Virus record (IMG/VR): IMGVR_UViG_3300046820_000903
Span: 1 to 64,000 of that record
Direction: 5' to 3' (one strand)
DNA length: 64,000 nucleotides
From: a virus
Under the pieces are notes generated by a model that was not told the DNA's origin, did not search any database, and was given only the letters and a program-made list of their open reading frames with translations. The position numbers and the translations under genes were made by a program. Positions 18,568 through 54,085 of the stretch are shown in pieces. How positions within the stretch are numbered: the stretch's first letter is position 1; every line of letters begins with the position of its first letter.

Positions 18568-18601
18568 TTTAGGTGGCTCCTATTTGTTTCTGTATGTATC
18601 T

Positions 18602-25649: not shown

Positions 25650-26518
25650 CACTTGCCCCAACCGTTTGACCAGATGTCAACGTGCAGTCTAGGACTATAT
25701 CTATAACCACGTGCCAGTGCTTCGTCTGCAATGTGTCTAGTATTTGAAAAGTATGCTTTGTCCGTGCCACCTACTGGCATAACATAAACTTGTCCACCAA
25801 AGCCTGCTTTGCGATACTCGCTAACTGCTTGGTCTACTTCTTTAAAATCTAAGATGTTATCAATAACAAACTTTAAGTAGGTATGTCCTAGTGTTTGATA
25901 TTCGACTATAACATCGGGCTTAATAGCATCACTCCACTTTTCACCACTGGCACTTAACTTAGGGCTTACGCTAAAAGTTAGGTAGTCTCTGTCTCTACCA
26001 AAACGTGTCCATTCTTGAAACAAGTATTCATAAAAGTCTTCGTGTAACTTTTGAGTACCATTGGTTTCAAATGTTAAATTTTCTAAGTCTGCCATGCGTG
26101 GGTTGCTTAACAAACTTGGATAAAGCATTTGCCAACCCAACAACGGTTCACCACCTGTAATAACCAAATGTACATCGTTACCATTGTCTTGTAACCATTT
26201 ATGATTAGGGGTAAGGTCTAGCATTGTGTCAATGCTTTGCTCTACGGAGTAGTTTGGACTAAGATGTTTAAAAGCAGGATGCCAACTTGCATAGCTATCA
26301 CATCCTGTTTGTGCTAACGGCAAGTCCATGAATGTTTTATATAAGTGAACTTCCTTACCAATGTCATCTGGCTCTGTAGTTTTCTCGCCAGCGGGCAGTC
26401 CAAAGCCCGGACACTTAAAGTTGCAACCAAATGTGCGGAAGAACACACTAGGTACACCTACAAAGCGTCCTTCGCCTTGTGCTGAGTAAAAGACTTCACT
26501 TACTTTAAATTCATTCAT
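25649..26518 (-). CDS. queE: 7-carboxy-7-deazaguanine synthase (radical SAM)
   Basis: EVFYSAQGEG, FFRTFGCNFKC..., VITGGEP, FETNGT, SVSPKL, YSPRLHVDIW. Confidence 0.9.
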   Translation of the reverse strand: MNEFKVSEVFYSAQGEGRFVGVPSVFFRTFGCNFKCPGFGLPAGEKTTEPDDIGKEVHLYKTFMDLPLAQTGCDSYASWHPAFKHLSPNYSVEQSIDTMLDLTPNHKWLQDNGNDVHLVITGGEPLLGWQMLYPSLLSNPRMADLENLTFETNGTQKLHEDFYEYLFQEWTRFGRDRDYLTFSVSPKLSASGEKWSDAIKPDVIVEYQTLGHTYLKFVIDNILDFKEVDQAVSEYRKAGFGGQVYVMPVGGTDKAYFSNTRHIADEALARGYRYSPRLHVDIWSNGWGK

Positions 26519-26783
26519 AGATAGTAGACCACACTTTCAGTTTTTCAATTTTGGCTTGCTTTGCTTTGTCAAGGCCAGCTTCTGTTACAATTCCCTTTAA
26601 TTTTAACAGATCTACCATGGCAAGTACATCACCAATTTCACCTTCTAGGTGCTGTGCATTAGTTAGGGGCTTACCTGGCTTGAGGTTATCCAAACCAAAG
26701 CGATGACACTTGCTGACTGCTTGGATTACCTCTGCACATTCTTCACTGAGAATGTTCATAACTTCATGTAACTTGTTATCCAT
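26511..26783 (-). CDS. MazG-like NTP pyrophosphohydrolase
   Basis: EECAEVIQAVSK...LEGEIGDVLAMV. Confidence 0.8.
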   Translation of the reverse strand: MDNKLHEVMNILSEECAEVIQAVSKCHRFGLDNLKPGKPLTNAQHLEGEIGDVLAMVDLLKLKGIVTEAGLDKAKQAKIEKLKVWSTIYE

Positions 26784-28185: not shown

Positions 28186-28459
28186 TGCCAGCTTCCAGTT
28201 TTGCTATGGAGTTTAGTCCGTTTACTGGGATTCCATCTTCGTCAACGATTGCAAAACCATCAAAGACAAACCCAGCACCTTTACAAAAGTCTTCAAACGC
28301 TTGTAAAATTTCTTCTAGGTTGTCATGATTATGATCTAAGACAAGTTTCCTAGTACCATCATTGTAGCATAACACCCATTGTGTGTCAAGCTCATTCTTG
28401 TCTATTTTGCCTAACGAGTGCAATGCTTTAACAATGGTGTCCCAATCTTTATTGCTCAT
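28166..28459 (-). CDS. Hypothetical protein
   Basis: 97-aa ORF within the operon. Confidence 0.65.
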   Translation of the reverse strand: MSNKDWDTIVKALHSLGKIDKNELDTQWVLCYNDGTRKLVLDHNHDNLEEILQAFEDFCKGAGFVFDGFAIVDEDGIPVNGLNSIAKLEAGNEDQTG

Positions 28460-29240
28460 TGGACCTCAATGATTCGTTTAATACAGAAATGGCTCTAATC
28501 AAATCAATGTGTATGCCAGACTTAACAAGGGCCGCCTCAAATGTTTTTACATCTTTTGGAAAGCATTTTCCACTAAATCCGTACATACCATCAGCACCTG
28601 GAACTGTCCAATGGCTTACTCCAAGTCGACCTTCGTGTGTTAACAATTGTTTAACAACATCATATGAGGCACCATGTGCTTTGCATAATTGTGAAACTTG
28701 ATTAGCAAAGATAACCTTCATTGCCAAGAATGTATTTGTAGATAGCTTTGCTATCATTGCTTCCAGAGGATCTGTGATAATAGTAAGGCCAGGGTAACTC
28801 ATTACAAGGTCTGAAAACTCTTTAGCATCACCACCCAATACAATTACATTTGGATTCATTGCATCTTCTCGCCAAGTTGCTTCTCTGATATATTCAGGCC
28901 ATACAATTAAATCATCACCAAACAATTCAATCAACTTTTGAACCGACTCGATGCTTGATGTACTACGTAAAACAATCTTGCCTTTAAAACCTTTTTCTAA
29001 TGCTTCGTTAATTGCCGAGTCAACATTAGCTGTAGAGTTTTCTGGAATTGGTAGAGAATCATCTAAGTCTGTGTTTACACAAATTACAAGGTACTCTGCT
29101 TTATCCCATGAATCAGGATTAGCAATGATTCCTTTTGGTGGATCGTTAAAAATAACATCAATTGAGGGATTGAAGTTTTTTAGAAAAAGTTCTGTGGATT
29201 GGCCAACAATGCCTTGGCCTTGAATGATAATAGAGGTCAT
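28449..29240 (-). CDS. UDP-glucose/GDP-mannose dehydrogenase family protein
   Basis: GQGIVG Rossmann motif, LRST, PEYIRE, AKLSTNTFLAMKVIFAN, GFSGKCFPKD. Confidence 0.88.
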   Translation of the reverse strand: MTSIIIQGQGIVGQSTELFLKNFNPSIDVIFNDPPKGIIANPDSWDKAEYLVICVNTDLDDSLPIPENSTANVDSAINEALEKGFKGKIVLRSTSSIESVQKLIELFGDDLIVWPEYIREATWREDAMNPNVIVLGGDAKEFSDLVMSYPGLTIITDPLEAMIAKLSTNTFLAMKVIFANQVSQLCKAHGASYDVVKQLLTHEGRLGVSHWTVPGADGMYGFSGKCFPKDVKTFEAALVKSGIHIDLIRAISVLNESLRSNEQ

Positions 29241-30020: not shown

Positions 30021-30344
30021 TTACTTTTCCAACAAATGCGTTTTTTCTTTAACGTCTTTGAATTCATCAGCAGTTTCGAGCTGGGGCTTCTTCTTTAGGA
30101 TGGTTGGCCAAATCATACTAAGCTCTGCGTTTAATGCAATATATGGATGTTGACTTGCATCAACATCAGTATCTGCAAAAATTGCATCTACTGGGCACTC
30201 TGGCACACATACTCCACAGTCAATGCATTCATCTGGATCAATAACAATAAAGTTAGGCCCTTCTTTAAAACAGTCAACTGGGCATACGTCTACACAATCA
30301 GTGTACTTGCACTTGACACAACTTTCAGTAACTACATAAGTCAT
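30021..30344 (-). CDS. fdxA: 7Fe ferredoxin (FdxA family)
   Basis: [18 protein letters not shown]...[21 protein letters not shown]. Confidence 0.95.
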
Positions 30345-30758
30345 TTATATTTTCCAATTAGATTCAATGTATTCTTTATTATCAGGCTTATTGCCTGTAA
30401 GCCCTAGCATACTTCTGTATGCCTGCCATGCTTCTTGTACCATTGGATCTGTATGTCCACCAGTAGGTAAAAGATCTGCCCATACAGCATCTTCTTGCAT
30501 CATACTTCTATATATACCAAAGTTGCGAGGCTGGTGTATTTTGCCCTCACGAAATAGAACACTGGCTACACCTTGACAGTCAGACTCGTCTAATCCATCC
30601 AAGTATCCAGGCCTATACATATATTCTTGAATGATTGGAACCAGTTGTTCCTGTGTTTCAAACCGTGTACCAGCTACAATAACAACAACATCGTTGATAT
30701 CAACTACATCCATAACAATGTCACGAATACAACGACCTAGGCTAAAACCAACTTTCAT
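30345..30758 (-). CDS. Hypothetical protein
   Basis: Likely start MKVGFSLGRCIRDIV with an AGGAG RBS; GKIHQPR motif. Confidence 0.75.
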   Translation of the reverse strand: MKVGFSLGRCIRDIVMDVVDINDVVVIVAGTRFETQEQLVPIIQEYMYRPGYLDGLDESDCQGVASVLFREGKIHQPRNFGIYRSMMQEDAVWADLLPTGGHTDPMVQEAWQAYRSMLGLTGNKPDNKEYIESNWKI

Positions 30759-31261
30759 AATGTACTCCTGTTCCACCAAGATTCCCAAGGAAAATCGATC
30801 CAAATATCGTTTTCCGCTTTGTTAACGCTCATACCACAGTAGTCAGTATACTGGTTGCTGGCCTCATTGTCAACCAAAGCGGCAAACCGTATTGCACTAT
30901 GCCAATACTTTTCAATAAAATCTGGCTCAATACCAGCTACACTAGACGCCCAATCTTCCATGAGCCACTGTTGTGTTGCCCCTGAATCATTGATGTCATC
31001 AACTAACAAGATTTTCTTCCCGGCTATAACATCTTCTGGAGCCCACAGTAAAGATTCTGTTTGCGGGTTATCTCGCAATGATATCTTGACAGCTTCATGC
31101 GGCACTCCCAGGTAATGACTCATCATTATGCTTATAGGTAGACCACCACGATCGACACCTATTACAACATCCGGACGCCAGTCCTGCTTTTGCATTTGTC
31201 GAAGTATTTCCTGTACAGTATTCTGTACATCTTGCCAGCCTAGTGTTAGTTTATTACTCAT
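30755..31261 (-). CDS. Purine (xanthine/hypoxanthine-guanine) phosphoribosyltransferase
   Basis: GVDRGGL, PRPP-binding LLVDDINDSGAT, WIDFPWE. Confidence 0.88.
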   Translation of the reverse strand: MSNKLTLGWQDVQNTVQEILRQMQKQDWRPDVVIGVDRGGLPISIMMSHYLGVPHEAVKISLRDNPQTESLLWAPEDVIAGKKILLVDDINDSGATQQWLMEDWASSVAGIEPDFIEKYWHSAIRFAALVDNEASNQYTDYCGMSVNKAENDIWIDFPWESWWNRSTL

Positions 31262-31766: not shown

Positions 31767-32510
31767 TTACCGTGGGGCAAATTCTTGTTGCATTTTAATA
31801 TTGTCAAAGAACTCTTTCTTTGTACTTTGATCATCCTTAAAGGCACCTTTAAGTACTGTGGTCTGTGTCAAACTAGAGTGTGCCATAATGCCGCGATTCT
31901 CACAGCATCCGTGCGTGGCTTGAATGTATACTGCTACGTTTTCAGAGTCAGTAGCTTTGCTAATCTCGCGGGCGATGTCGTTACAAAGTTCCTCCTGGAG
32001 AGTACCTCGTCTGGCGCACCACTGGGCAATTCTTGTGTACTTCGATAAGCCAATAAGTTTATTAGCGGCAATAATACCAATATAGGCAACACCACTAACA
32101 GGCTGATGATGATGACTGCACATACTGCGAAGCTCGCTACGTACAACAAGCATACCTTCATAACGGTCCGCTGAGTCATTTGGAAATGCTGTTGCATCTG
32201 GTGGTGTTTCATATCTACCTGCCATTATTTCATTGAAGTACATTTTAGCAAGTCGTCTTGCAGTACCTTTTGAGTTTGGATCGTCTTCACGATCGATAAG
32301 CAACCTATCAAGCACTAGTTCAAATGCTTCTGCGGCTTCGTTAATTAACACTTCTTTTTCAGATTCGTTAATGTATTCGCTGATGTTGTCGCCAGCCCAA
32401 AAGCGTTTACCTTCACGCCTCATTCTAGAACGAATGTAGCCACCTAAGTAGCCTTCTGAATACCCACCATCGCCTGCCATTGCGTCCAGGCCTGTTTCTT
32501 TATTTGTCAA
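31767..32510 (-). CDS. folE: GTP cyclohydrolase I
   Basis: SMCSHHHQP, IGLSKYTRIA, LQEELC, HGCCENRG. Confidence 0.95.
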   Translation of the reverse strand: MTNKETGLDAMAGDGGYSEGYLGGYIRSRMRREGKRFWAGDNISEYINESEKEVLINEAAEAFELVLDRLLIDREDDPNSKGTARRLAKMYFNEIMAGRYETPPDATAFPNDSADRYEGMLVVRSELRSMCSHHHQPVSGVAYIGIIAANKLIGLSKYTRIAQWCARRGTLQEELCNDIAREISKATDSENVAVYIQATHGCCENRGIMAHSSLTQTTVLKGAFKDDQSTKKEFFDNIKMQQEFAPR

Positions 32511-32853: not shown

Positions 32854-33076
32854 AGAACTCACTTTTACGCAAGTCATCCCAACCACCTACTAACTTACCA
32901 TCAATTACAATTTGTGGAACAGCACGGGCTGATGGAACGGCTTCTAATAAGTTCTCACGAGTAAAACCATTAGTACCAATTTTATGTTCGGTGAAAGCAA
33001 TGTTCTTGCTCTTCATCCAGTTTTTTGCCATATCGCAAAACTGGCATTGTTCTTTACTATATATAACGACTTGCAT
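32831..33076 (-). CDS. Glutaredoxin
   Basis: CQFC active site, AVPQIVIDGKLVGGWDDL. Confidence 0.92.
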   Translation of the reverse strand: MQVVIYSKEQCQFCDMAKNWMKSKNIAFTEHKIGTNGFTRENLLEAVPSARAVPQIVIDGKLVGGWDDLRKSEFYANANQG

Positions 33077-33511
33077 TTATTTTTCCTGTGATGTATCGTA
33101 TGTTTGTGCAAAGATGTCTTTCTTGACTGCACCAAAATCGCCCGGCCCGTGTCTAACAATGTAGTCGTTGCCCTTTGTGTATGCCAAGTCTCCCCACGAT
33201 GTATGTAGTGTACCATCGTGGTTGGCTAGTTTGGCATGTTTGTTAATTTTCTTAGGTGTAGCTGTACCATTGCCATTGTCATCATAAAGTGTTTTAAACT
33301 TCTCTGGAGTAATAGGATAATTTTCTCCTTTTGGTCCAGTCATAATGTAGTGACCTACTTCGTAGTTAACCGGACCTTCTAATGTTTTTACAGTACCTGG
33401 CTCTTTGGCAACTTCATACTTGACAGGTGCGGCCTTTTTAAATGTAGTAAAGGCACCGTCAGTGAACCAATCGTCATTGACTACTGATTCCTTTAAGTCT
33501 TTGATTTTCAT
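33077..33511 (-). CDS. PGDYG-like repeat protein with MKIKDLKE N-terminus (possible head-packaged protein)
   Basis: Two internal repeats: TLEGPVNYEVGHYIMTGPKGENYPI / TSWGDLAYTKGNDYIVRHGPGDFGAV. Confidence 0.6.
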   Translation of the reverse strand: MKIKDLKESVVNDDWFTDGAFTTFKKAAPVKYEVAKEPGTVKTLEGPVNYEVGHYIMTGPKGENYPITPEKFKTLYDDNGNGTATPKKINKHAKLANHDGTLHTSWGDLAYTKGNDYIVRHGPGDFGAVKKDIFAQTYDTSQEK

Positions 33512-33675
33512 ACATTATCTCCTTTAGTGTCTTCTTGATTTGTTAGATATTTTTCTAAGGCATCTTTAAATGCTTCTTCGGTTAGACCATGCCAACCAAT
33601 ACATTTTCCAGTCGGACTACGACCACACCCACAGCTACCAAACTCTTTGGGGTTTTCTTTAACTCTGATTTGCAT
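33508..33675 (-). CDS. CDGSH-type iron-sulfur small protein
   Basis: CGCGRSPTGKCIGWH; likely start MQIRVKE. Confidence 0.7.
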   Translation of the reverse strand: MQIRVKENPKEFGSCGCGRSPTGKCIGWHGLTEEAFKDALEKYLTNQEDTKGDNV

Positions 33676-34093
33676 TTTTTTCTTTTTCTGCTTCGTACAC
33701 TCTTTTACGTAAGCTACTAGATGAAAAACTATGGTCACGCCCGTTAAAGTATAGGTCAATGTTTCGTTTGTGGCAAAGTTCCCTGCCAGTGAACTCTTTA
33801 CCTTCGTATTCTACACCTAAGATGCGAACATCAAGTGGTAATATTAACAGCAAATCTTCTAAGTCTTTTTCAGTATTGTAGACCCAAATTTCATCTACAT
33901 ACTTATTTCCTCGTAGTTGCATTTGGCGTTCAATGATACTTTGTATAGGCTTATTTTTTGTAGCCCTATCTAATGTAGGATCGTTTTGTAAGCCTACAAT
34001 TAGATAATCACATTGTGTCTTTGCTTCTTGCAACATAGAAACATGACCAGCATGTAACAAATCAAATGTTGAACAAGTAAATCCTACTTTCAA
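33659..34093 (-). CDS. Cytidylyltransferase (TagD/glycerol-3-phosphate CT-like)
   Basis: TFDLLHAGH (HxGH), LIVGL, SSSSLR; TTG start at 34093. Confidence 0.88.
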   Translation of the reverse strand: MKVGFTCSTFDLLHAGHVSMLQEAKTQCDYLIVGLQNDPTLDRATKNKPIQSIIERQMQLRGNKYVDEIWVYNTEKDLEDLLLILPLDVRILGVEYEGKEFTGRELCHKRNIDLYFNGRDHSFSSSSLRKRVYEAEKEKNANQS

Positions 34094-35085
34094 GCTCTGC
34101 TCCTGTATTCTACAGAGTTGTACCATGCCCATGCAGTTTTAACAATGTTGTCAATACTACTAGAATCAGTCTTCCAACCTGTTTCTTTCTTAAATTTATA
34201 TGCACTGGCAACTAGCGTAGCAGGGTCGCCTTCTCGTCTTGGTCCAGTATGTGTTAATACCATTCTTCCCGTGATACGTTCAACGCTGGCAATGATTTCT
34301 TTAATGCTTACACCTTGGCCAGATCCTAGGTTGTATTCTACTGAGGATCCTGGTGACATGCCTTCGGAATACAATGTTGATAGGTAATGTGCATTAGCAA
34401 TGTCTTCTACATGTAGATAGTCACGTACACAGGTACCATCGGTAGTAGGGTAATCTGTGCCGTTAAGAGTAAACACACCCTTGTCAACAATTGTTTCCAT
34501 GATGCGAGCAATTAAATGAGTTGCTTGTTTCAATTGGCCATGTCTTACTTTTGAATCAGCACCACAGGCATTGAAGTAACGCAATGCTACAGTTTTAAAT
34601 CCATAGCCTTTAGCACAGTCCCGTAATACTTGCTCTGCCATTAACTTGCTTTGACCATATGGACTAATTGGAGACTTATCGCTTTGCTCTGTTAATGATG
34701 TACTATTGCCAGGGTCTCCATAAACTGCGGCACTGGAAGAAAACACTACAGTTTTTTTCCAACCTCTACTGGCAAGTGTGCTTAATAGACGAGCAGTATT
34801 ACCTACATTGTTTAGATAGTAAGGACCTGGATCGGTCATACTAGGCCCAACTAAACTTGTGCCAGCAATGTGAATAAGTGCTGATGGATTCTTATCAATC
34901 ATTAAATTGATAAACATAGGATTGGTAAAGTCGCCTGTGACAAAGGAATCTACAACACCACGTATCCATGGAGCAGTAGTATTTCTATCTACTCCAATAA
35001 CGTGATATCCTAGATCCTTAAATCTTAGAACAGTTTGTCCGCCAATATAACCATTGCAACCAGTTATAGCTACGCACTTATCCAT
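34090..35085 (-). CDS. galE: UDP-glucose 4-epimerase
   Basis: TGCNGYIG, FSSSAAVYG, YGQSK, LRYFNACGA, DGTCVRDYLHV, RREGDP. Confidence 0.93.
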   Translation of the reverse strand: MDKCVAITGCNGYIGGQTVLRFKDLGYHVIGVDRNTTAPWIRGVVDSFVTGDFTNPMFINLMIDKNPSALIHIAGTSLVGPSMTDPGPYYLNNVGNTARLLSTLASRGWKKTVVFSSSAAVYGDPGNSTSLTEQSDKSPISPYGQSKLMAEQVLRDCAKGYGFKTVALRYFNACGADSKVRHGQLKQATHLIARIMETIVDKGVFTLNGTDYPTTDGTCVRDYLHVEDIANAHYLSTLYSEGMSPGSSVEYNLGSGQGVSIKEIIASVERITGRMVLTHTGPRREGDPATLVASAYKFKKETGWKTDSSSIDNIVKTAWAWYNSVEYRSRA

Positions 35086-36296
35086 TAGTACTTTGCTCCT
35101 GATACATGATCACGATAGCGATTGCCTGAGCGATTCCATGGTGTAGCTTTACATTCCATACCACCTTCGGCAACAGTCCCAGCAGTTTCCATAATGTCAA
35201 TGATGCGATCAACAGTACCATTGTTCCAATCGCTAATCTTACCTTGACGAACATGAACACCAGCTAGTTGAATACGAAGCTTGTTTATAGCGTCATCTAA
35301 ACTCCATGGAACATATAACCTGGTATGGTCATTGGCAAATGTCTCAGGAAAGCTACGATAGGCAGGATACAAAACATTACAACCAAGAGCATCGGCCTCG
35401 CTAACGGTGTTTGAAACCCAGTCTTGTAAAGCACAGTTGAACAGAACACGGCTATCATTGACAATACTATAATACTCATTTTTACTTAGGTCCTCGTAGA
35501 TTTTGAGTTTGTTTTGTTCTGCCATCTTGTAAGCACGTTCCAAATACTTTGGATTGTTACTGCGTAACGGACCGCCACTTAGTACTGCGAACTCAACTGG
35601 ATAGCCTGGCCATTGACGATGCCATTCTTCAATAAGATCCATAAAGAAGTCGGGTTGCTTCTCTTGGTCAAACCTTGCCGCAAAAATTACACGGTGTGCT
35701 CTTTCTGGGAAAGATTTAATTTTATTATTAACACGACCTTGTACTTCTTCCTTACCAAATGCCAGTCCGCTAATGTTATAGATAGGAGCAGTCCAGTTTG
35801 CAATACGCATATGAGCTACCATCTCTTCGTTTGTTGCAAGCACTCCTGTAACAAAACAATTTACCATTTGCTCATATGTGCTCATCCACTTGCTCATTCC
35901 CCATACGTGAACAAAGTCATCTGGGTCAATTGCTTGTGCTAAACAACGCACAAAGATACGTGGACGCAAGTTAGCAGGCACTTGATCAAGGATGTAAGGT
36001 AAGCTTTCGATACCTGGCTGGAACATGTCTTCAAAATAAATGACATCTTCATTTGTGACATCACCTCGTCGCATCATTTGAACAAGGTTCATCATTTGAC
36101 TCATACCAAAGTAACTACGGCCATGTGCGTCTAACACTTGTCCTACACTAATTGCTTTAGTATTGTCAATAGTACTTCCAGGCACTATCACATAGTTGAT
36201 GCCTCGGCGTTTAAATACAGCTTCATTCCATTGCTGGAGTTGAAGCGTGTAACGCCCTTCATAGGGCTCGAGGCCCATATAAAAGAGCTTACGCAT
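35085..36296 (-). CDS. GT-B fold glycosyltransferase
   Basis: VIFAARFDQEKQP, SNTVSEADALGC...SFPE, typical of the GT4-like C-terminal domain. Confidence 0.75.
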   Translation of the reverse strand: MRKLFYMGLEPYEGRYTLQLQQWNEAVFKRRGINYVIVPGSTIDNTKAISVGQVLDAHGRSYFGMSQMMNLVQMMRRGDVTNEDVIYFEDMFQPGIESLPYILDQVPANLRPRIFVRCLAQAIDPDDFVHVWGMSKWMSTYEQMVNCFVTGVLATNEEMVAHMRIANWTAPIYNISGLAFGKEEVQGRVNNKIKSFPERAHRVIFAARFDQEKQPDFFMDLIEEWHRQWPGYPVEFAVLSGGPLRSNNPKYLERAYKMAEQNKLKIYEDLSKNEYYSIVNDSRVLFNCALQDWVSNTVSEADALGCNVLYPAYRSFPETFANDHTRLYVPWSLDDAINKLRIQLAGVHVRQGKISDWNNGTVDRIIDIMETAGTVAEGGMECKATPWNRSGNRYRDHVSGAKY

Positions 36297-36740
36297 TACA
36301 GCACCAATCGATTTGGGTTACAGCACAGCCCATCAACTGTGTGTGCTTTACCTTCTGGAGTCCATGGGCTTTTATAAAAGCCTACATGAATCTTAAGTGC
36401 TTTGTTAGCACGGTCTTGTGCGCTTTGCACATTAACTGTATAAGTGAAGCTACGATCTCCACTTGCCTCATGAGTACGCAACTCTGGCGTATCAATAGCA
36501 TAACTGTAAATCATGCCATCCTTACACAAGTCTGTAAGGTATTGGTTATAGAACTCCAAAGGCAAGTGCCCAAGGTCTTCAGTTAATACACCATCGTATA
36601 ACTCGCTAATTTTTAGCAAGTCAAACTTGATGTGGTTGATGTTAAGACCAGCCCTGCGGGGTTGGTAGCCATTGTTGTAACCACGGTCACCACCGCGATT
36701 GAATTTTACGTGTTGTTTAATATTGCTTGAGGCATCCATT
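36296..36740 (-). CDS. Hypothetical protein
   Basis: ORF between the QueD-like gene and the glycosyltransferase; start uncertain. Confidence 0.65.
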
Positions 36741-37085
36741 TTCGCCATCCTCCGAAACTTCAATCCAAACTTTACGATCTGTGTACTTTGATGAGATCTG
36801 ACCATGTAGATCATCTGCCATCATTTCACAGGACTTGAAATCCAATGCCAGCGTTCCTTGCGAATATAAATTCTCTAACCAACGCTTGAACTGAATAAAC
36901 TCCACATCTCTATCATCATGAAAGACTTCGAGATACACTTTAAAGTGGAACATGTGTCGATGAGGATGTCCTAAAAAAGAAACATCATACTCGTCACCTG
37001 TTGCCAACTTAGGATCCGTAAGTGCCGCCGGATACCTATGAATACCTTCTTTGCGGAAGGTTACCCAAATCATGTCTGTTGACAT
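36717..37085 (-). CDS. dpdL: QueD/PTPS-like T-fold protein of DpdL type (putative CDG decarboxylase)
   Basis: FLGHPHRHMF fits LxxxHRHxF rather than the QueD CxxxHGH motif; SCE and EDGENG motifs. The DpdL signature is recalled from memory. Confidence 0.65.
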   Translation of the reverse strand: MSTDMIWVTFRKEGIHRYPAALTDPKLATGDEYDVSFLGHPHRHMFHFKVYLEVFHDDRDVEFIQFKRWLENLYSQGTLALDFKSCEMMADDLHGQISSKYTDRKVWIEVSEDGENGCLKQY

Positions 37086-37093
37086 GTTATTCC

Positions 37094-37303
37094 TTAATCA
37101 ATGTAGTTGTTAGCTTTTAAGTATACCCACATCTTCCAGTCAATTGCCTGAGCAAATTCTAGAAGCTTGTCCATTTTTTTGTTAAGTTCAGCGATACCAT
37201 CATCGCTACCGCTCTCTGCAACGGCTTCATCGGCACCAGCAGACTTTGGCAAAGGACGCTTAACCGCCTTGTTTAAATTGCCAACTTTAACATCATCGTT
37301 CAT
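37094..37303 (-). CDS. Hypothetical protein
   Basis: 69-aa ORF, AIDWKMW; AAGGA RBS. Confidence 0.7.
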   Translation of the reverse strand: MNDDVKVGNLNKAVKRPLPKSAGADEAVAESGSDDGIAELNKKMDKLLEFAQAIDWKMWVYLKANNYID

Positions 37304-37304
37304 T

Positions 37305-37883
37305 TTATATTTCCTTGTTTAGGTTTACAGGTGTATCGCCTTTATAGGCACTCCATGGCGTAAAGTACTTTCTTTTAGTGAGGTTCTCTAAAGGAACGCA
37401 CCATACACCAGGATTCGTAGCATCAAAGCTCTTGTCGTCGACTTTGATGGTTGTATTATAATTTAACAGTCTTAGGTAAGGAAGTTTTACCGAAACCATT
37501 GGAATAACACGATTGTTGTCACTGGCAGAGCTTTCTAGAAAGCCTTCAATTTGACTGGCAGTGATGTCTACTGTAATATAATCAATACTAGTGCCGTCAA
37601 GCAATTCATCAATCATGCCATCAATTTGGCGCCACGTATAATAATCATCATTTGCTACACTATGAAAGCTCATGTTAGCACCGAGATAAACGTGACGAAT
37701 GTACTTTGAATGATCGTGATAGCTAGACCTATCACCAATAATACGTTTAAGTGTATCCATGGGTTGGATACCAACAACAAACAATGTTAGCATATCCTTA
37801 GCAGGCGAACTTTCAACTTCAGTCCCAATAAAGTAGTTTACACTAGTTGTTGGGCCTGTACCATAATCACGTTCAATACTCAT
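37305..37883 (-). CDS. Hypothetical protein coupled to the TGT/DpdA gene
   Basis: YFIGTEVE...TLFVVG...HVYLGANMSF...KVDDKSFDATNPGVWC; ATGA overlap with the dpdA stop. Confidence 0.75.
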   Translation of the reverse strand: MSIERDYGTGPTTSVNYFIGTEVESSPAKDMLTLFVVGIQPMDTLKRIIGDRSSYHDHSKYIRHVYLGANMSFHSVANDDYYTWRQIDGMIDELLDGTSIDYITVDITASQIEGFLESSASDNNRVIPMVSVKLPYLRLLNYNTTIKVDDKSFDATNPGVWCVPLENLTKRKYFTPWSAYKGDTPVNLNKEI

Positions 37884-39436
37884 TCCAAGTCCTCTTCAAG
37901 TTCCATTAACTTTTCATTGTCTAAACTTGCCATGTCATCTTCTTCTGGAAGCTCATCAACTGTGTCAAACAAGTCTTTACCTTTTGCGGCATTAGCGGCG
38001 TCAACACCACCAAAGCTAATGGAGTTTAAGAACGTTGTATTATCAACAATCATTTGACGAGCTTCTGCCATAGTAGTTGCAGGATCAAATAGAACTTCTA
38101 CAAAGTTGTTAAAGTACAAGATGTCATTTGGAATAAACTCACTTAACTGTGGAGCCTTCTTGCCAAACCCAACTGCATCTTTATAACTTACTTTGGTCCG
38201 CTCGTATTCAATATCTGCTACTCGCAATGTTTCTTGCACCGCTTGTATATGATTATACACGTTATGTGCCATGATGAGCAAGTAGGACATGGTATCCCAA
38301 CTAGTCTTTCCAACCTTACCTGTCTTGTTGGCATCGTTTGGACCAAGATAACAAATGTCGCCTGCTACCAGCCGTTCCATAATAGGACCTTGATGAGGCA
38401 TAGCCAGCTTTGAACCTTTGAGCCGCTTGTCGTCAACACTCTTGCCCATAGAATATGTTAGCTTCTGTGGAGTAAAGTAATTGTAATTGTAACTCAATGC
38501 ATAGCCACCAGCCGCAACAAACGGACTTGCCGCATCAAAGCTAATGTTGATGTTAGGATTGTGATGCTTTTGTAATTGGCGCTTGATAGAAGTCAAGTAG
38601 CAGGCCCACTTTAGACGACCAATGCCTAGGAAGTGAATCCAGTCCTTATCTGCAATAAGACCATCTTCAATCAAGTCAAGCATACGATTTAATACTGAGG
38701 GCATGTGCTTCATATTGATACCAGCAAACGCCCAACCTTCAAGTGTACGATCTTCGGTATAGCCTAACTCAACTACACTGGACTTTTTACTAAAGTGTTT
38801 GATTGTGTCGTACCACAGCTTGGAGTTATCTGGTGTGCTACCAGAGATAACGTTTAGAAACTTTGTAGCACCTGGTACACGATGCTTCATAAAGTAATGA
38901 AGGTTATGTACTGAAATATCAAGTGTATCTTCAAACTTGGTTAAACCAGTCTTAGCACTCAGCGGAGGTACTGCGGCAAACGCAGGAACGTCAAGTGTCA
39001 TTGACCAATCTGAAGTATGTTCTAAGTAGCGTAGAATTTCTTCGCGGAACTTGTCACCTTCCGCACCTTTGATGTTCTTCCAATCCATCTTGATAACACC
39101 AGTTGCCAATTGGAAACCAGAGCTATCACCTACAATTGTTGTTCGGCTACGATCACGCTTGTGAATCATTGGCTCTTTGTCATCACAACGAGTCAAGTTG
39201 CGATCAGCATGGCCTGCTGAATATAGCGCAACGCCATAGTGATAGTACGAGTCTTCTGTCTTAAGAAAGTTTACACCTTCCAAGCCGTGTTCAAAACCTG
39301 CAGGGACACGACCAGCAGGTACAAATGTTGGATCACTGGCAACCTTACCAAGTTGTTTGGTATAGAAGCCACTAATGGCTGGGAGATAAAAGGCATAGTT
39401 GCCTTCTACTGCCCTTTTGGTCATGTCAATAGTCAT
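37880..39436 (-). CDS. dpdA: tRNA-guanine-transglycosylase-like protein, probably a DNA 7-deazaguanine transglycosylase (DpdA family)
   Basis: GDSSGFQ, MTLDVP, IHFLG, SFDAASPF, HN motifs; lies next to the clamp and DNA polymerase, with folE, queE and a QueD-like gene in the same region. Confidence 0.75.
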   Translation of the reverse strand: MTIDMTKRAVEGNYAFYLPAISGFYTKQLGKVASDPTFVPAGRVPAGFEHGLEGVNFLKTEDSYYHYGVALYSAGHADRNLTRCDDKEPMIHKRDRSRTTIVGDSSGFQLATGVIKMDWKNIKGAEGDKFREEILRYLEHTSDWSMTLDVPAFAAVPPLSAKTGLTKFEDTLDISVHNLHYFMKHRVPGATKFLNVISGSTPDNSKLWYDTIKHFSKKSSVVELGYTEDRTLEGWAFAGINMKHMPSVLNRMLDLIEDGLIADKDWIHFLGIGRLKWACYLTSIKRQLQKHHNPNINISFDAASPFVAAGGYALSYNYNYFTPQKLTYSMGKSVDDKRLKGSKLAMPHQGPIMERLVAGDICYLGPNDANKTGKVGKTSWDTMSYLLIMAHNVYNHIQAVQETLRVADIEYERTKVSYKDAVGFGKKAPQLSEFIPNDILYFNNFVEVLFDPATTMAEARQMIVDNTTFLNSISFGGVDAANAAKGKDLFDTVDELPEEDDMASLDNEKLMELEEDLE

Positions 39437-39438
39437 GT

Positions 39439-40158
39439 TTAGTTTTGTGCGCCAGCAATATATTGATAAGCAATAAGACCGCTATTAAATTCAACCCGAG
39501 CGGCTTTCTCGCTAATGCTTAGAATAGGAGTACCTTGGCTACATTGTTTAAATGCTGTCATCATAGCTTGAATAGATAAAGCTACTGGACGCTTTAGTGT
39601 TTGTGTAGTGTCAGCAAAGGTAAACTTACCACCGTGACCACCACCTTGTCCACTACCAAATGTAAAGATCAACTTGCCGTTCTCTGTACTTGCAATAAAG
39701 TTTGGATCAATAGTAGCATACAATGTACCACGTGCCAACAATTCACTAATCTTGTTAGCTTGAGGCTGAACAACCACTTCCCAAGTTGTACCTTTAAATG
39801 TACGGCTCTTGGTTTTCATCAAGTTAGTGGGAGTCAATCGATACTCGTCCTTGTTATTGTCTTTGTTTGTAAAGACCAAACGATCTTTCTCGCTGTTTTT
39901 GTCTGTGCCAACATCTGCTGTGCTGTCTTCTGACTTGTACAAGTTTGTTAAGCCAATAAAGAAGCCCAAGTTCATCATACCGAAGTTATCTGGTAACTCT
40001 GCTACCTTATCCTTGCTGTTGGCAAGTACAGTAAGCAAGCTACCTTCTGGGTATGCTGTAAATTTTGTAGAGTCTGTTTCTTGTTCAACTAAGATCTCTT
40101 CAAAGAGGCCCAAGCTGGCGATGTTTTTTGCTACATCAAGCGCGATATCTTTTAACAT
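39439..40158 (-). CDS. Putative DNA polymerase sliding clamp
   Basis: 239 aa, two-domain alpha/beta pattern, immediately downstream of the polymerase; largely positional inference. Confidence 0.5.
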   Translation of the reverse strand: MLKDIALDVAKNIASLGLFEEILVEQETDSTKFTAYPEGSLLTVLANSKDKVAELPDNFGMMNLGFFIGLTNLYKSEDSTADVGTDKNSEKDRLVFTNKDNNKDEYRLTPTNLMKTKSRTFKGTTWEVVVQPQANKISELLARGTLYATIDPNFIASTENGKLIFTFGSGQGGGHGGKFTFADTTQTLKRPVALSIQAMMTAFKQCSQGTPILSISEKAARVEFNSGLIAYQYIAGAQN

Positions 40159-40181
40159 TGTGATTCTCCTGTCATGTATTG

Positions 40182-40210
40182 ATTATATTTAGATTTAGGT
40201 TTAAAGTCAA
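40182..40210 (-). promoter_or_regulatory. Sigma70-like promoter driving the clamp-dpdA operon
   Basis: TTGACT-N17-TATAAT; AGGAG RBS. Confidence 0.8.
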
Positions 40211-40226
40211 GTTCCTGTTCACCGTT

Positions 40227-42875
40227 TTAGGAAAACAAGTCATCAATAAATCCTCGGTCCTTACTAAGGCTCAAGTCCCAGTGTAATACGCCGAGCAAGT
40301 TTTCAATCTTACTGTCAATGATAGTTTCCTCCATTGCTGTATGATCAAATGGCAATTGCTTAAACCAATCTGGGAGATTCATCTCGTCAATTGGATACGC
40401 AATACTGTTAATTTGCATTGGGTTGGACCTTAGCTTGCATACAATGGCCTTTTGACCATCTGTAATATCCATACTACGCCTATCTCCAAATGCTTCTTTG
40501 ATACGATTCCAGTTAATGGCCGCCATAGCATGTCCTACTCCGCATTTACCTGTTTTGACATAAACATCTGTATGCTTAGTTAGATTATTAACACGCTTGG
40601 GTGTGCCCTTTTCCCAACCAGGGCGGCTCTTAAACTCCTCACGGAACTGTTTAACACGAGCCATGACATCTTGTTCACTCTTACCTTCCAGAGTCATGGT
40701 AAGTGCTTCTTCCAAGAACCGTTGCATGAACTCTGGAGTATCGGCTCGCTTCATGTCAAGCCCCATGGCTTTAAGCTCACCAGTGGCACCATCTTTATCT
40801 TTACGCTTGCCTTCCTTATCATAGATAAGAACAGCATAACGCTTCTTGGTCATGTAAATGCCTTTACTTGCAACTACTTCTCGACCAGCTTTGATAATCT
40901 CACCTTGGCTAGCAGGAGCATTGAACGCATAGTTCATAAACGCAGAGAAGGTATCGTTTACCTGCTCACTAATAGCATCGTACAACTCGATAATCTTTTC
41001 TCTGCTCCAATCAATCTCATCACGTTCAATTTGTTCTTTAAAGATTGGATATGCAGAGAAGTAAACAGAGTCAGTGTCACCATAGATAATTGCCTTGCCC
41101 ATATGATCCTTCTCACCTGTCAAGCAATCGTTAACAGCACCTGCCATGTGTCTAGCAACTAAGCGTCCACATAGTGTAGTTGATTGACCTAAGCGTTGAT
41201 CAAAGAATCGACTACCAGCGTTCAACAACGCACCGTAAGCAGAGTTCAAGTTAATCTTCTTAACCAGCTGTCGCTTGTCCCAGAAGTCAAACATATCTGT
41301 TCCGTAAGCTTCTTTGGCTTTTGCCTGTAGTTCTTTACGTTCAGCATACCAACGCTCTAGTAGACCTGGGATAACACCTTTACTGGCATAGCTAAAGATT
41401 GTACCGTTGCCACTGATCATCAATGGCTTACCACCATGGAATACAAAGTCGTATACTTCTGCGCTTGACATTTCACTGCTGGTACCATCTGCCCAATCAA
41501 CAATTTCTGTTTGCCCAATGTCTCGTTTCATCACAGATTCATATTCAAAGCAAGCAAACTTGCCCTCCCAAAACTCTGCAATGCCTTTGCCATTTGCAAT
41601 AAATTCGTCAATGCCGGCAAGTGTGCGTGATTGTCGTACTTGACCAATGATAGTCTCGGGACTCATATTAAGCGCACGGATCAGACTTGGATACAGACTG
41701 TTAATGTCCATACTGCCAATCCACTCATGCATGCCTGCTTTAGGTACAGCAACATAAGCACCTGCCGCGGCATTGTCTTTTGCATCATTACTGCGCCTTG
41801 GGCGGTCTGGAACCACCATGCCTAGTCTATGTGCTTCATTGATAACAGCTTGATCGGTAACTGCCACTGCACCTAGTGTAGCCCGAAGTCCTACACAGTT
41901 GGCATGACTAATCAAATTGGTAAGCTCAATGAACTTTAACTTGTCATCTAGTTTCTTCAACAACAGTACGTCTTGCCTGTTGTAGGCAATGAACTTTTCC
42001 CAGTCGTTGTTGTATAACTGATCCAGTGTGCCTTCATATGGAATCTTATTCTCACCAAGTTCATACTCACCAATGGCATCCAAGCGATAAGTGTGCATCT
42101 CATGATAGTTGTATTTTCGATACAGTTCAAGATAGTCCAGGTGAACACGACCAATAGGATCGTATGTTTCTAGTGTCTTGCCATACTTTTCAAACTCACG
42201 CTTCTTGGGGAATTGGTTCCATAGACAAATCCTTCGAGTGTGTTCTTTGCCTAGTATGCGTGTGATGCGATTGGTAGTGTAAGGAATATCAAAGCCTTCA
42301 CTGTTCCAGCCACTCAGTACATCTGCATCATCTATCAGATCCAGAAACATTTCCAACATTTCTTTTTCGTCTGCACACAAGATTGTGTCATCAAACTTTG
42401 ATACAATGTCTTTGGCAATGTTATCTGCCATTGCTTCGGGTTTAAGAACTAATGTAATAGTCCTATTAATCCATTGCAAGTGCGTGGTGATAGCAGTAAT
42501 GTAATTGAAAGGATCATCTGGCGGCGCAAAGCCTTTTACCTTGTCGTATGATACCTCAATGTCAAAAAACGCTACATGAAGGTTAGGAGCATCCATACCG
42601 CTATACACTTCTTCCAAGCAACGATTAAGCGGCTTGTAATCGCTTTCACACAGCTTTTTGTTATTGTGTATGCGCCTCTCTTTGTCAAAAGCCGCGGCAT
42701 TGCTTAGTAGGATACGACTAACACGGTCACCGGCAATGTTAGTAAACTTGCCTTTGCTATCTGGGTAATACAGTACATACTTGGCTGGATACTCTTTGAG
42801 TACCCTCTTGCCATCTACACGTTCTACAACGTGGATGATTTCTTTTTTCTTATCGTGATATGCGTCTACAAACAT
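40227..42875 (-). CDS. Family B DNA polymerase
   Basis: Exo FFDIE, GWNSEGFDIPY, YNRQDV; pol motifs DINSLYPS, KINLNSAYG, YGDTDS, KKRY; no intein. Confidence 0.97.
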   Translation of the reverse strand: MFVDAYHDKKKEIIHVVERVDGKRVLKEYPAKYVLYYPDSKGKFTNIAGDRVSRILLSNAAAFDKERRIHNNKKLCESDYKPLNRCLEEVYSGMDAPNLHVAFFDIEVSYDKVKGFAPPDDPFNYITAITTHLQWINRTITLVLKPEAMADNIAKDIVSKFDDTILCADEKEMLEMFLDLIDDADVLSGWNSEGFDIPYTTNRITRILGKEHTRRICLWNQFPKKREFEKYGKTLETYDPIGRVHLDYLELYRKYNYHEMHTYRLDAIGEYELGENKIPYEGTLDQLYNNDWEKFIAYNRQDVLLLKKLDDKLKFIELTNLISHANCVGLRATLGAVAVTDQAVINEAHRLGMVVPDRPRRSNDAKDNAAAGAYVAVPKAGMHEWIGSMDINSLYPSLIRALNMSPETIIGQVRQSRTLAGIDEFIANGKGIAEFWEGKFACFEYESVMKRDIGQTEIVDWADGTSSEMSSAEVYDFVFHGGKPLMISGNGTIFSYASKGVIPGLLERWYAERKELQAKAKEAYGTDMFDFWDKRQLVKKINLNSAYGALLNAGSRFFDQRLGQSTTLCGRLVARHMAGAVNDCLTGEKDHMGKAIIYGDTDSVYFSAYPIFKEQIERDEIDWSREKIIELYDAISEQVNDTFSAFMNYAFNAPASQGEIIKAGREVVASKGIYMTKKRYAVLIYDKEGKRKDKDGATGELKAMGLDMKRADTPEFMQRFLEEALTMTLEGKSEQDVMARVKQFREEFKSRPGWEKGTPKRVNNLTKHTDVYVKTGKCGVGHAMAAINWNRIKEAFGDRRSMDITDGQKAIVCKLRSNPMQINSIAYPIDEMNLPDWFKQLPFDHTAMEETIIDSKIENLLGVLHWDLSLSKDRGFIDDLFS

Positions 42876-46388: not shown

Positions 46389-46417
46389 AGTATAGCGGAT
46401 TAGCTTCGATAAGTCAA
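46389..46417 (-). promoter_or_regulatory. Sigma70-like promoter upstream of the DsbA-like gene and the small-ORF array
   Basis: TTGACT-N17-TATACT. Confidence 0.7.
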
Positions 46418-47191
46418 CTGATGATTGCGTCGGACTATATCATTTTCATCGCACACTGATCCATGTTGGATCTCCACAATCTTACAAGGACCACTAAAGG
46501 GATTGCTGATCCTGTGCCATTCACCCAATGGCACAACATAATGTTGACCTGCTGATATGGTCCTTGGTGGTAAATTGTAGCCACTGTGCATTTCACCGTA
46601 CACATCACACATGCCTGATACAATGTGCCAGTATTCGTGTCGAGACTCATGCTTTTGCATACTCAGGCTTTGACCGGGCTCAACCACCAGCTCTTTGACT
46701 TTTGTTGCCTGTCCATTGGTAGGATCATTGTATATGACCCGATATCCACCCCATGGCCGTTTTACAAATACACCTTTCCAATCACTTAGGAAATCACTGC
46801 TGGAACCGCGTTTATCTTCGCCACCAATGCCAAACTTAAAAATGATATCAGTCACAGCCATTTCTGGAATGTTGGTGGCTGTACGATCACCCCCATTGGC
46901 AAATATGATTTGATCGCTGGGGTATTCTTTTTTAACACGTTCCAATAAATCTGTAGCTGTATCGTCATTGTCATCCCAGCTCAAGACTTGATCCACTTGT
47001 TTTAAATTGCCAACAACTTCAGCACGATGATACCAGGGCATAAAGGCAGAACCTTTTTTACGTGCTAGCCAAACATCACTGTTGATGCCCACAACAAGAC
47101 AGTCGCCCAGCTCTGCGGCTGACTTTATCAATGAAATGTGGCCAGCATGAATAGGATCAAACCCGCCACTCACAACCACAACTCGCTTCAT
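46400..47191 (-). CDS. Cytidylyltransferase fused to a mannose-6-phosphate-isomerase-type cupin
   Basis: SGGFDPIHAGH, FANGGDR; C-terminal RPWG...SLSMQKH..RHEYW...EIQHG. Confidence 0.88.
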   Translation of the reverse strand: MKRVVVVSGGFDPIHAGHISLIKSAAELGDCLVVGINSDVWLARKKGSAFMPWYHRAEVVGNLKQVDQVLSWDDNDDTATDLLERVKKEYPSDQIIFANGGDRTATNIPEMAVTDIIFKFGIGGEDKRGSSSDFLSDWKGVFVKRPWGGYRVIYNDPTNGQATKVKELVVEPGQSLSMQKHESRHEYWHIVSGMCDVYGEMHSGYNLPPRTISAGQHYVVPLGEWHRISNPFSGPCKIVEIQHGSVCDENDIVRRNHQLTYRS

Positions 47192-47793
47192 AGTAATTTA
47201 GAAAACTTTTCTTTTACTTCTTCGTAGGTTGGATTATTTTCAAACCCAATCTGTACAAAATACAAATGTTCGCTGTTGAATCTGTTGTCAAACATGACAA
47301 CTTGATCTCCACGCATCATCCAGGCACCTTCTGGAATAAAAGTATCTTCATCCAGTGGGAAATCTCTTTTATTTCTATCTTCGTCCTTGACTATTACATC
47401 CTTGGAGATCCATTTGACATTGGATGTTGGATGACTTGCAAGTGTCAGATTGAATAAACATTGTCTTGCAGGTAAATCATAATCAAAGATCTTGTCCACT
47501 GCTGGATTGAACGGCGTAGTACGAATACGACCTTGCCAAGGAATACTGATGCTGAAGGGTTTTAAATTGACAATGTTCAACAGCTCAATGTTTAATCCAA
47601 TGTCTTCGATATGGTTGAGCAATTCAAACTGTCCTTGTAGGTCAGGTGTCATTCTAATCTTGCGTAACAGTCCAGTGATAGGATTGAAGTTGAGTGTTAA
47701 TTTTTTAACCTGCTCCATGTCTGCCGCAAACCATTTGTTAAAGTTCTCAACATCAGTGCTATAGTTTTTTTGAATTAGGTGTGCTTTTTCCAT
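47188..47793 (-). CDS. Hypothetical protein
   Basis: 201-aa ORF; possibly a degenerate DSBH fold lacking the HxD triad. Confidence 0.65.
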   Translation of the reverse strand: MEKAHLIQKNYSTDVENFNKWFAADMEQVKKLTLNFNPITGLLRKIRMTPDLQGQFELLNHIEDIGLNIELLNIVNLKPFSISIPWQGRIRTTPFNPAVDKIFDYDLPARQCLFNLTLASHPTSNVKWISKDVIVKDEDRNKRDFPLDEDTFIPEGAWMMRGDQVVMFDNRFNSEHLYFVQIGFENNPTYEEVKEKFSKLL

Positions 47794-47796
47794 TTT

Positions 47797-50931: not shown

Positions 50932-50964
50932 CGTTATTCAAGTCCTTTAACCAGTTATTTAATA

Positions 50965-54066: not shown

Positions 54067-54085
54067 AATGTTATTTAGTATGTAG

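Follow-up and report, generated by a model that had tools for sequence, protein, structure and literature searches.

A glycosyltransferase conserved in DpdL-type deazaguanine DNA-modification loci of phages, and a possible sugar-bearing DNA base

To our knowledge, all the glycosylation known in phage DNA is carried by pyrimidines, and by hydroxylated ones. Nucleic acids with a sugar-bearing 7-deazaguanine derivative do exist in eukaryotes, whose tRNA contains mannosyl- and galactosyl-queuosine. Eight 7-deazaguanine derivatives have been reported in phage DNA, none of them sugar-bearing (Cui, Hutinet et al., Nucleic Acids Research 2023, PMC10516641). The subject of this paper is a gene cluster in which a glycosyltransferase (GT) and a UDP-glucose 4-epimerase (GalE) are embedded among genes for 7-deazaguanine DNA modification. 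The cluster is located in the first 64 kb (positions 1 to 64,000, hereafter the window) of the 82,291-base IMG/VR virus record IMGVR_UViG_3300046820_000903. Very probably it constitutes a replication-linked deazaguanine DNA-modification module of the QueC-less 'DpdL type', which upholds the original prediction of such a gene set from the window, and the GT is likely to belong to the deazaguanine pathway. That the virion DNA contains a sugar-bearing base is a possibility that falls just short of an even chance.

Because the 82,291-base record is rated 25% complete by CheckV, the source genome probably measures about 300 kb, the size of a jumbo phage. DNA nearly identical to the window is present in freshwater metagenomes. 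The genes run on the minus strand throughout, from about 12.4 kb to the end of the window, and this is the strand of every feature of the locus described below. The tightly packed run that had been noted earlier at 33659-40158 indeed consists of nine open reading frames (ORFs), all on the minus strand, which abut or overlap each other. In order downstream of polB, they encode a clamp-like protein, a protein of 518 residues with the fold of tRNA-guanine transglycosylase (TGT), proteins of 192 and 69 residues, DpdL, a protein of 172 residues, the GT, GalE and a cytidylyltransferase-like protein. Further downstream are the genes for FolE, a phosphoribosyltransferase (PRTase), the ferredoxin FdxA, a truncated UDP-sugar dehydrogenase, MazG and a divergent QueE.

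DpdL has been studied in the Cellulophaga phage phiST, the DNA of which holds plain 2'-deoxy-7-deazaguanosine (dDG). It is a proposed decarboxylase of 7-carboxy-7-deazaguanine (CDG), accounting for the complete replacement of dG by dDG in this phage, and its signature, LxxxHRHxF, takes the place of the CxxxHGH motif of QueD. Expression of dpdA and dpdL of phiST or of the Acidovorax phage ACP17 in E. coli gave no dDG, and the authors considered that other enzymes are perhaps required (PMC10516641).

The window protein of 122 residues at 36717-37085 is a QueD paralog and had been labeled QueD-like, but this name was rejected, both homology and the LxxxHRHxF motif identifying the protein as DpdL. 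In tblastn searches, it is 54.7% identical (E 1e-35) to the gene of ACP17 and 33.9% identical (E 4e-7) to that of phiST, both of which are at the published DpdL positions. Its motif, LGHPHRHMF, fits the signature and lacks Cys. In an alignment of five DpdL sequences, L38, H42, H44 and F46 are invariant, and the protein of phage PA5oct has F in place of R.

The GT (403 residues, 35085-36296) is difficult to recognize by its sequence. Its matches to GT1-type Pfam families, PF00534 among them, reach no more than 20.9 and 21.0 bits, whereas 26.4 and 27 would be required. The homolog from phage BUCT-ZZ01, which is 70.7% identical, exceeds both cut-offs with 26.5 and 28.3 bits, and PF00534 is carried by nine of 120 close relatives. 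Although Pfam support is weak, the GT-B label given to this protein earlier is borne out by its AlphaFold2 model (pLDDT 73.2), in which two loops have low confidence, though they are invariant in sequence. A Foldseek search with this model found PimA, BshA and MshA, with E-values from 7e-10, and VIA superimposed it onto PimA with a Z-score of 21.5 and a root-mean-square deviation of 3.7 Å over 320 residues. Judged by its predicted structure, the protein is a GT-B fold enzyme, and its nearest structural counterparts are retaining enzymes of GT4/GT20, among them PimA, BshA, MshA and OtsA. The α- and β-glucosyltransferases of T4, which act on DNA, were not among the 50 best rows of either the Foldseek or the VIA search. 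Residues R208, K213, D292 and E300, which we take to be nucleotide-sugar binding residues and an acidic EX7E-type motif, are invariant in 28 GT sequences, for which the mean column identity is 81%. The family is both very large and very conserved, since 7995 of the 8000 candidates scored were matches and the best 120 are 76-94% identical. The charge and isoelectric point of the GT and of its domains were uninformative.

The gene that follows, at 34090-35085, encodes a GalE of 331 residues. It matches TIGR01179 with 306.3 bits over residues 5-324, well over the equivalog cut-off of 262.3, and PF01370 with an E-value of 9.2e-46, so that its earlier assignment is secure. The last gene of the run (157 residues, 33659-34132) was likewise correctly named as a cytidylyltransferase: it is a cytidylyl/adenylyltransferase-like protein of the RfaE domain II or TagD type, with scores of 44.7 bits for PF01467 (cut-off 21) and 53 bits for TIGR00125 (cut-off 27.7). 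Its matches to the narrower models rfaE_dom_II and g3p_cytidyltrns are both below cut-off.

The association of the GT with deazaguanine genes was analyzed in two sets of 80 viral loci, one chosen from IMG/VR by similarity to the GT, with up to 10 kb of flanking sequence and with truncations at contig ends counted as misses, and the other chosen by similarity to DpdL. In the first set, to which all counts out of 80 in this paper refer, DpdL was found in 76 loci, a GalE-like gene in 76, mostly directly after the GT, a TGT-like gene in 72, the gene of the 192-residue protein (p192) in 71, PolB in 66 and FolE in 65. A lack of co-occurrence of the GT with dpdA in relatives had been named as a finding that would refute the original prediction. 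The two do co-occur, and the GT and GalE are tied to the deazaguanine set. The gene order is constant: PolB, clamp-like, TGT-like, p192, DpdL, GT, GalE, FolE. It is kept in spite of the divergence of PolB (about 56% identity) and of the TGT-like protein (about 34%); the median identities of the GT, DpdL and FolE are 72%, 74% and 82%, respectively. In the set chosen by DpdL, the GT is present in all 59 loci that have at least 3 kb downstream, and TGT/DpdA is present in 63 of the 64 that have at least 4 kb upstream. The two sets mostly reflect retention under divergence rather than independent origins. The cytidylyltransferase, which had been counted as a part of the module, occurs in 23 of the 80 loci, sometimes at a different slot, and is a variable add-on.

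Evidence from independent lineages is provided by cultured phages. In a tblastn search of 50,697 records, the GT matched 16, every one of which also belongs to the 28 records with DpdL. Four groups have the GT adjoining DpdL or at most 1.6 kb distant: the PA5oct-like jumbo phages, Acidovorax phage ACP17, Xanthomonas phages X1/BUDD and the T4-like phage BUCT-ZZ01. In PA5oct and ACP17, it is positioned between dpdA and dpdL. Phage Phosso of Sinorhizobium constitutes a fifth group, in which an annotated glycosyltransferase, 38-42% identical to the GTs of ACP17 and PA5oct, is located beside DpdL. Phages phiST, RHph_I1_18 and Bakedbeans have DpdL but no tblastn match to the GT in their records, and the DpdL flanks of phiST and RHph_I1_18 contain no annotated glycosyltransferase. 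Because all the records with the GT hold DpdL, yet DpdL phages without the GT exist, the GT appears to be specific to DpdL systems without being essential to them, and has the look of an added decorating layer. What had been described as a deazaguanine operon fused with a GT, GalE and a cytidylyltransferase is a widespread and conserved module, not a local insertion or a fusion peculiar to the window phage.

Several of these phages have peculiarities of their own. BUCT-ZZ01, which is classified with the Kyanoviridae as a phage of Synechococcus, contains two GT-B genes in its deazaguanine cluster (positions 8790-12947 of the stretch examined). One of them is the GT that is 70.7% identical to that of the window, whereas the DpdL proteins are only 38% identical and the DpdA proteins have no likeness detectable by BLAST. 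Such a difference in identity suggests transfer of the GT from one phage lineage to another. In Phosso, the homolog of the 518-residue TGT-like protein is about 170 kb away from the DpdL-GT-FolE-QueE cluster (record positions 150422 and 323249), and a 177-residue protein annotated as a 'glycosylase' fills the slot beside the clamp. In the Vibrio phage Bakedbeans, the region matching DpdL makes up the C-terminal third of an annotated ORF of 383 residues (6212-7363 of the stretch examined), and DpdL may be fused to another domain there. BLASTP comparison of phiST DpdA3 with candidate ORFs of RHph_I1_18 and Bakedbeans showed no likeness.

The 518-residue protein (37880-39436) was identified through its predicted structure, no sequence family having been matched. 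It has no match in Pfam, PHROG or NCBIfam, including the curated TGT model PF01702, and neither phmmer nor a 67-sequence profile found a TGT among the PDB sequences. Its AlphaFold2 model, built on 39 relatives, has a pLDDT of 85.6 and a pTM of 0.86. When this model was compared to the PDB with Foldseek, all of the 50 best rows were TGT chains, with E-values from 3.9e-6, a probability of 1.00 and TM-scores of 0.27-0.54. Residues D104, S105, G107, H268, G271 and D301 do not vary among 67 diverse members of the family, with identities down to 24%, and Q109 and D149 hardly vary. The first three of these belong to the sequence GDSSGFQ, H268 and G271 to HFLGIG, and D301 to SFDAASPF. These residues presumably correspond to the catalytic motifs of bacterial TGT, and the motifs align with DSGGLQ and ISYDS of a 424-residue protein of ACP17. 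The family profile matches the ACP17 protein with 96.9% probability (hhalign, E 1.5e-10, 177 columns) and phiST DpdA3 with 67.9% probability. The ACP17 protein adjoins the dpdL of that phage, and we infer that it is the dpdA tested in the 2023 paper (PMC10516641).

The model and the profile match thus agree with the TGT/DpdA label of the original prediction: the 518-residue protein is, by its modeled fold, a distant DpdA-like member of the TGT superfamily, and exchange of bases in DNA is its putative function. The family has remained unannotated although it is large: 1931 of 8000 candidates scored belong to it, and another search found 750 representatives at 50% clustering. A complex prediction for the DpdA-like protein and the GT scored 0.00 in both runs, which is evidence neither way.

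The run is preceded by a DNA polymerase gene. The family-B polymerase (882 residues, 40227-42875; PF00136 E 8.1e-36, PF03104 E 3.7e-18, phrog_262 E 1.3e-188) heads the conserved gene order, and its C-terminus reads IDDLFS. It is separated by a gap of 68 bases from the next gene, which encodes a protein of 239 residues (39439-40158) and has AGGAGA in front of its ATG. The gap contains a sigma-70-like promoter match (TTGACT-17-TATAAT, 40182-40210) that agrees with the consensus in 11 of 12 positions. Of the promoter proposed there earlier, it stands that this is the best site in the region 33000-40400, but the region contains 20 such sites, which is not above the number in shuffled sequences (19.1, standard deviation 4.2).

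The 239-residue protein had been called a clamp, a name which can be kept as a lead only. It has no match in Pfam or NCBIfam, and its PHROG family, phrog_12062, is of unknown function. The ESM Atlas puts clamp clusters (PF09116) near it, with values of 0.95-0.96 and 206-207 features in common, and in Phosso an annotated clamp gene occupies the equivalent slot. The protein, which occurs in 65 of the 80 loci, is probably a sliding clamp of the gp45 type.

The DpdA-like protein ends in a disordered tail (residues about 484-518) that contains KDLFD, and the sequence [S/D]LF[D/G/E] is conserved. In the 67 diverse family members, [L/I/M]F is found within the last 8 residues in 20 sequences, compared to 2.5 (standard deviation 1.5, maximum 9) in random internal windows. 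None of the 28 GT sequences has a tail of this type. The clamp-binding tails of T4-type polymerases resemble the DLF tails of both polB and the DpdA-like protein. By this analogy, the tail of the DpdA-like protein may bind the clamp, and the resemblance suggests that the enzyme is tethered to the clamp encoded next door.

The genes for the synthesis of the deazaguanine precursor are partly within the window. FolE, a GTP cyclohydrolase I of 247 residues (31767-32510), matches PF01227 with an E-value of 3.3e-40 over residues 69-238. It has about 60 extra N-terminal residues before the start of the Pfam domain. The QueE-like radical S-adenosylmethionine (SAM) protein (289 residues, 25649-26518) is divergent. 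It matches phrog_2076 ('QueE-like') with an E-value of 2.7e-50 and is 45% and 30% identical to the annotated QueE proteins of BUCT-ZZ01 and PA5oct, respectively. All five NCBIfam models of QueE that it matches score below their cut-offs (28-37 bits compared to 200-300; E 2e-9 to 1e-6), and it has no match to the Pfam Radical_SAM family. Between these genes are those for a purine-type PRTase (168 residues, 30755-31261; PF00156 50.5 bits, cut-off 26.3, with weak XPRT and HGPRT matches), which has counterparts in the clusters of BUCT-ZZ01 and PA5oct, for FdxA (107 residues, 30021-30344; NF045490 159.8 bits, cut-off 135; 22 of 80 loci) and for a MazG-like NTP pyrophosphohydrolase (90 residues, 26511-26783; PF03819 27.4 bits, cut-off 22; phrog_4856 E 5e-22). 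The names given earlier to the FolE, PRTase and MazG proteins were confirmed by family matches, and the label QueE-like is supported by the match to phrog_2076 and the likeness to annotated phage QueE proteins. Family searches of the 82-kb record for TGT (PF01702), QueC and PTPS found none, and tblastn with three phage QueD proteins did not detect a true QueD in it. QueD occurs downstream in 31 of the 80 loci.

The following chemical steps are what we infer from the gene identities, folds and conserved linkage described above. FolE and the QueE-like enzyme, together with a QueD not seen in the 82 kb, would produce CDG, with FdxA as a possible electron donor for the radical-SAM QueE. DpdL would decarboxylate CDG to 7-deazaguanine, which the 518-residue DpdA-like enzyme would then exchange into DNA, probably at the replication fork. 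The PRTase and MazG, which recur in the clusters of PA5oct, BUCT-ZZ01 and phiST, hint at an additional or alternative route at the nucleotide level, before replication. GalE would supply a UDP-4-epimer sugar, for example UDP-galactose, and the GT would transfer it to the deazaguanine, whether at the stage of the free base or after exchange of the base into DNA. The outcome would be virion DNA with a sugar-bearing deazapurine. In its most specific form, the proposal is that the DNA of the window phage, PA5oct, ACP17, BUCT-ZZ01, X1/BUDD and Phosso carries hexosyl-7-deazaguanine, which would be the first glycosylated purine known from DNA, installed at the replication fork by a clamp-tethered DpdA-like enzyme with a dedicated, GalE-fed GT4 enzyme. 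This proposal is tentative, and somewhat more so than that of a sugar-bearing base as such.

Several observations weigh against a glycosylated deazaguanine in the DNA. 7-Deazaguanine does not have a hydroxyl group, and no acceptor atom for the sugar can be named. DpdL works without a GT in phiST, so that the GT is unnecessary for dDG, and the decarboxylase activity of DpdL is itself a proposal in the literature that did not pass a heterologous test. The structures that match the GT model are enzymes acting on small molecules, lipids or glycans, with no DNA glucosyltransferase in the 50 best rows of either list. The GT, DpdL and FolE (72-82% median identity) are far more conserved than the TGT-like protein (34%), which fits a small-molecule role of the GT as well. 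QueD, QueC and a TGT detectable with Pfam were not found in the 82 kb, which are 25% of the genome by the CheckV estimate. Finally, both 80-locus sets consist of relatives collected by similarity, the synteny being largely due to shared descent, and only about five independent lineages are known.

Of the other explanations, the one that survives best, though unlikely, is that the window phage contains plain dDG, as phiST does, and that the GT and GalE were co-inherited with the deazaguanine genes but make a pterin or deazapurine glycoside, or a protein or cell-surface glycan. The absence of an obvious acceptor group on dDG agrees with this explanation, as do the best fold matches of the GT, which are GT4 small-molecule and glycan enzymes, including the tetrahydrobiopterin glucosyltransferase BGluT (E 1.7e-8, Z 19.4-19.6). 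FolE, a PTPS-like T-fold protein, a short-chain dehydrogenase/reductase (SDR) and a GT also resemble the cyanobacterial route to biopterin glucoside, and a second sugar cluster is positioned upstream, at 46400-57415. The SDR of the window, however, is a true GalE and not a pterin reductase, and a pterin glycoside is of no apparent benefit to phages of Pseudomonas, Acidovorax, Xanthomonas and Sinorhizobium. Furthermore, a co-inherited gene of unrelated function is difficult to reconcile with the distribution of the GT in cultured phages, where 16 of the 16 records with the GT are those of DpdL phages, with the GT beside or near DpdL, and where the GT is inserted between dpdA and dpdL in ACP17 and PA5oct.

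It is less probable still that synthesis or delivery of the base requires the GT, for example because a glycosyl intermediate is formed transiently or because the large DpdA-like enzyme has the GT as its partner, and that the final base is free of sugar. In favor of this explanation, the dpdA and dpdL genes of ACP17, a phage that has the GT, gave no dDG in E. coli, but those of phiST, which has no GT, failed as well (PMC10516641). The large size of the DpdA-like enzymes of GT-bearing phages, 416-540 residues, and the extreme conservation of the GT (mean column identity of 81% in 28 sequences) also speak for it. On the other hand, the finding of a dedicated GalE in 76 of 80 loci implies that UDP-sugar is actually consumed, and the residues of catalytic type are invariant in the GT. 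That the sugar is attached to another modified base, such as a hydroxymethylated pyrimidine, in a second hypermodification that is merely linked to the deazaguanine genes, as had also been envisaged originally, would conform to the rule that known phage DNA glycosylation is all on hydroxylated pyrimidines, but is highly improbable. In the 82 kb, which are about a quarter of the genome, a candidate acceptor pathway was not found: ThyX is present, but neither a hydroxymethylase nor a TET-like enzyme nor a kinase that modifies pyrimidines. Moreover, the GT tracks DpdL and not any pyrimidine gene.

A glycosylated deazaguanine, the preferred reading, would add the sugar-bearing deazapurines as a new class to the known DNA bases, with consequences for restriction, CRISPR and glycosylase defenses as well as for enzymology and sequencing. 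Two published observations would be explained as well, namely the modified G of PA5oct and the absence of dDG when only dpdA and dpdL were expressed. The GT family is abundant in freshwater viromes and is carried by several cultured phages.

The remaining proteins of the run are less informative. The p192 protein (192 residues, 37305-37883) has a 29%-identical counterpart in ACP17, directly upstream of the ACP17 DpdA. Scans of p192 against Pfam, PHROG and NCBIfam gave nothing informative, and Pfam scans of 24 family members gave nothing at E <= 0.05. A profile of these 24 sequences matched only designed repeat proteins in the PDB, the ESM Atlas value of 0.90 with 112 shared features is at the level of chance, and comparison with the Phosso 'glycosylase' of the same slot gave a BLASTP E-value of 39. 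The 69-residue ORF (37094-37303) is limited to close relatives, with 13 of the 80 loci, and has no family match. The basic 172-residue ORF (36296-36814, isoelectric point 9.2) is found in 18 loci and has no family match either; because it overlaps the end of dpdL, translation probably begins further inside the ORF. In three studies, contigs assembled from RNA libraries match parts of the GT, dpdL and TGT-like genes at full identity, but carry-over of DNA is possible and the contigs show no transcript.

The UDP-sugar dehydrogenase noted earlier downstream of the run (28449-29240) does match its family (PF00984 E 3e-16), but it is truncated. Its 263 residues cover only the middle of TIGR03026, positions 73-296 of 413, with 102.5 bits compared to a cut-off of 189.8, and the ORF may be a remnant or a split gene. 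A metallophosphoesterase and a glutaredoxin were also clearly identified. Elsewhere in the window, a DUF2201 metallopeptidase/VWA protein adjoins a MoxR-type AAA ATPase at 17347-20033. Two fatty-acid desaturases, a fatty-acid hydroxylase, an Asp/Asn β-hydroxylase-like protein and ThyX are encoded at 7309-7824, 10064-10963, 10966-11631 and 14683-15147 of the window and at 3545-4282 of the part of the record that follows it (64001-82291).

The second sugar-type cluster, at 46400-57415 on the minus strand, is upstream of polB. It comprises a cytidylyltransferase fused to a cupin of the mannose-6-phosphate-isomerase type, two FkbM methyltransferases, an SDR resembling GDP-fucose synthase, two twitch-domain radical-SAM proteins (302.8 and 247.1 bits, cut-off 170), a GH19 lysozyme-like gene and several unknown genes. 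The part of the record at 64001-82291 (5571-7634, 7660-10119, 12445-13551 and 14591-16052 in its own coordinates) encodes CsgG and CsgF of curli secretion, a CHASE2 adenylate/guanylate cyclase, a FecR-like protein, an amidoligase, a GGACT-like protein and a further radical-SAM protein. These genes are either unusual phage cargo or a sign of a chimeric end.

The locus is thus of a known kind, that of the DpdL-type deazaguanine systems, and what is new is the proposed product. Full-text literature searches, in which most hits were judged by listing or abstract, gave no description of a glycosylated deazaguanine in DNA, and the original prediction knew of none either. With phiST, it shares FolE, QueE, MazG, a DpdL with the LxxxHRHxF motif, a DpdA of the TGT superfamily encoded next to the polymerase genes and the lack of QueC (PMC10516641). 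Unlike the window, phiST has neither the GT nor GalE, its DpdA3 has 259 residues compared to 518, and its cluster contains a kinase-like ATPase. ACP17 has a row of p192-like, DpdA (424 residues), GT-like, DpdL and QueE genes, as in the window; the published work on ACP17, in the sections seen, treated only dpdA and dpdL and not the GT between them (PMC10516641).

According to a preprint (PMC12191111), the DNA of Pseudomonas phage PA5oct resists cutting at G-containing restriction sites and contains a modified G of unsolved chemistry. The gene order of the window is shared by PA5oct: PolB, clamp-like, TGT-like (52% identical), GT-like, DpdL (56%), an epimerase fragment, PRTase, QueE and RNase H. 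The two loci differ in that the PA5oct GT, a member of the ACP17/Phosso subfamily, is only 21.6% identical to that of the window, the epimerase-like gene is a fragment of 172 residues, unlike the 331-residue GalE, and no p192 homolog was found in the PA5oct locus examined.

Three described systems resemble the proposed chemistry. Glycosylated queuosine differs from it in being a component of RNA and in carrying the sugar on a cyclopentenediol, which the pathway of the window cannot make. HuiG, of the huimycin pathway, uses UDP-GlcNAc to place GlcNAc on a 7-deazapurine base (bioRxiv 10.64898/2026.04.15.718813) and is a precedent for the proposed chemistry. It is similar to what is proposed for the GT of the window in being a UDP-sugar GT that acts on a deazapurine made by FolE-, QueD- and QueE-type genes, but it belongs to an actinomycete secondary metabolite pathway which has no enzyme for insertion into nucleic acid. 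The glucosylation of 5-hydroxymethylcytosine in T-even phages is alike in that a phage GT-B enzyme and a UDP-sugar decorate a non-canonical base as a protection from restriction (compare the abstract of PMC13216743). Its acceptor is the hydroxymethyl group of a pyrimidine, unlike the deazapurine that is proposed for the window phage.

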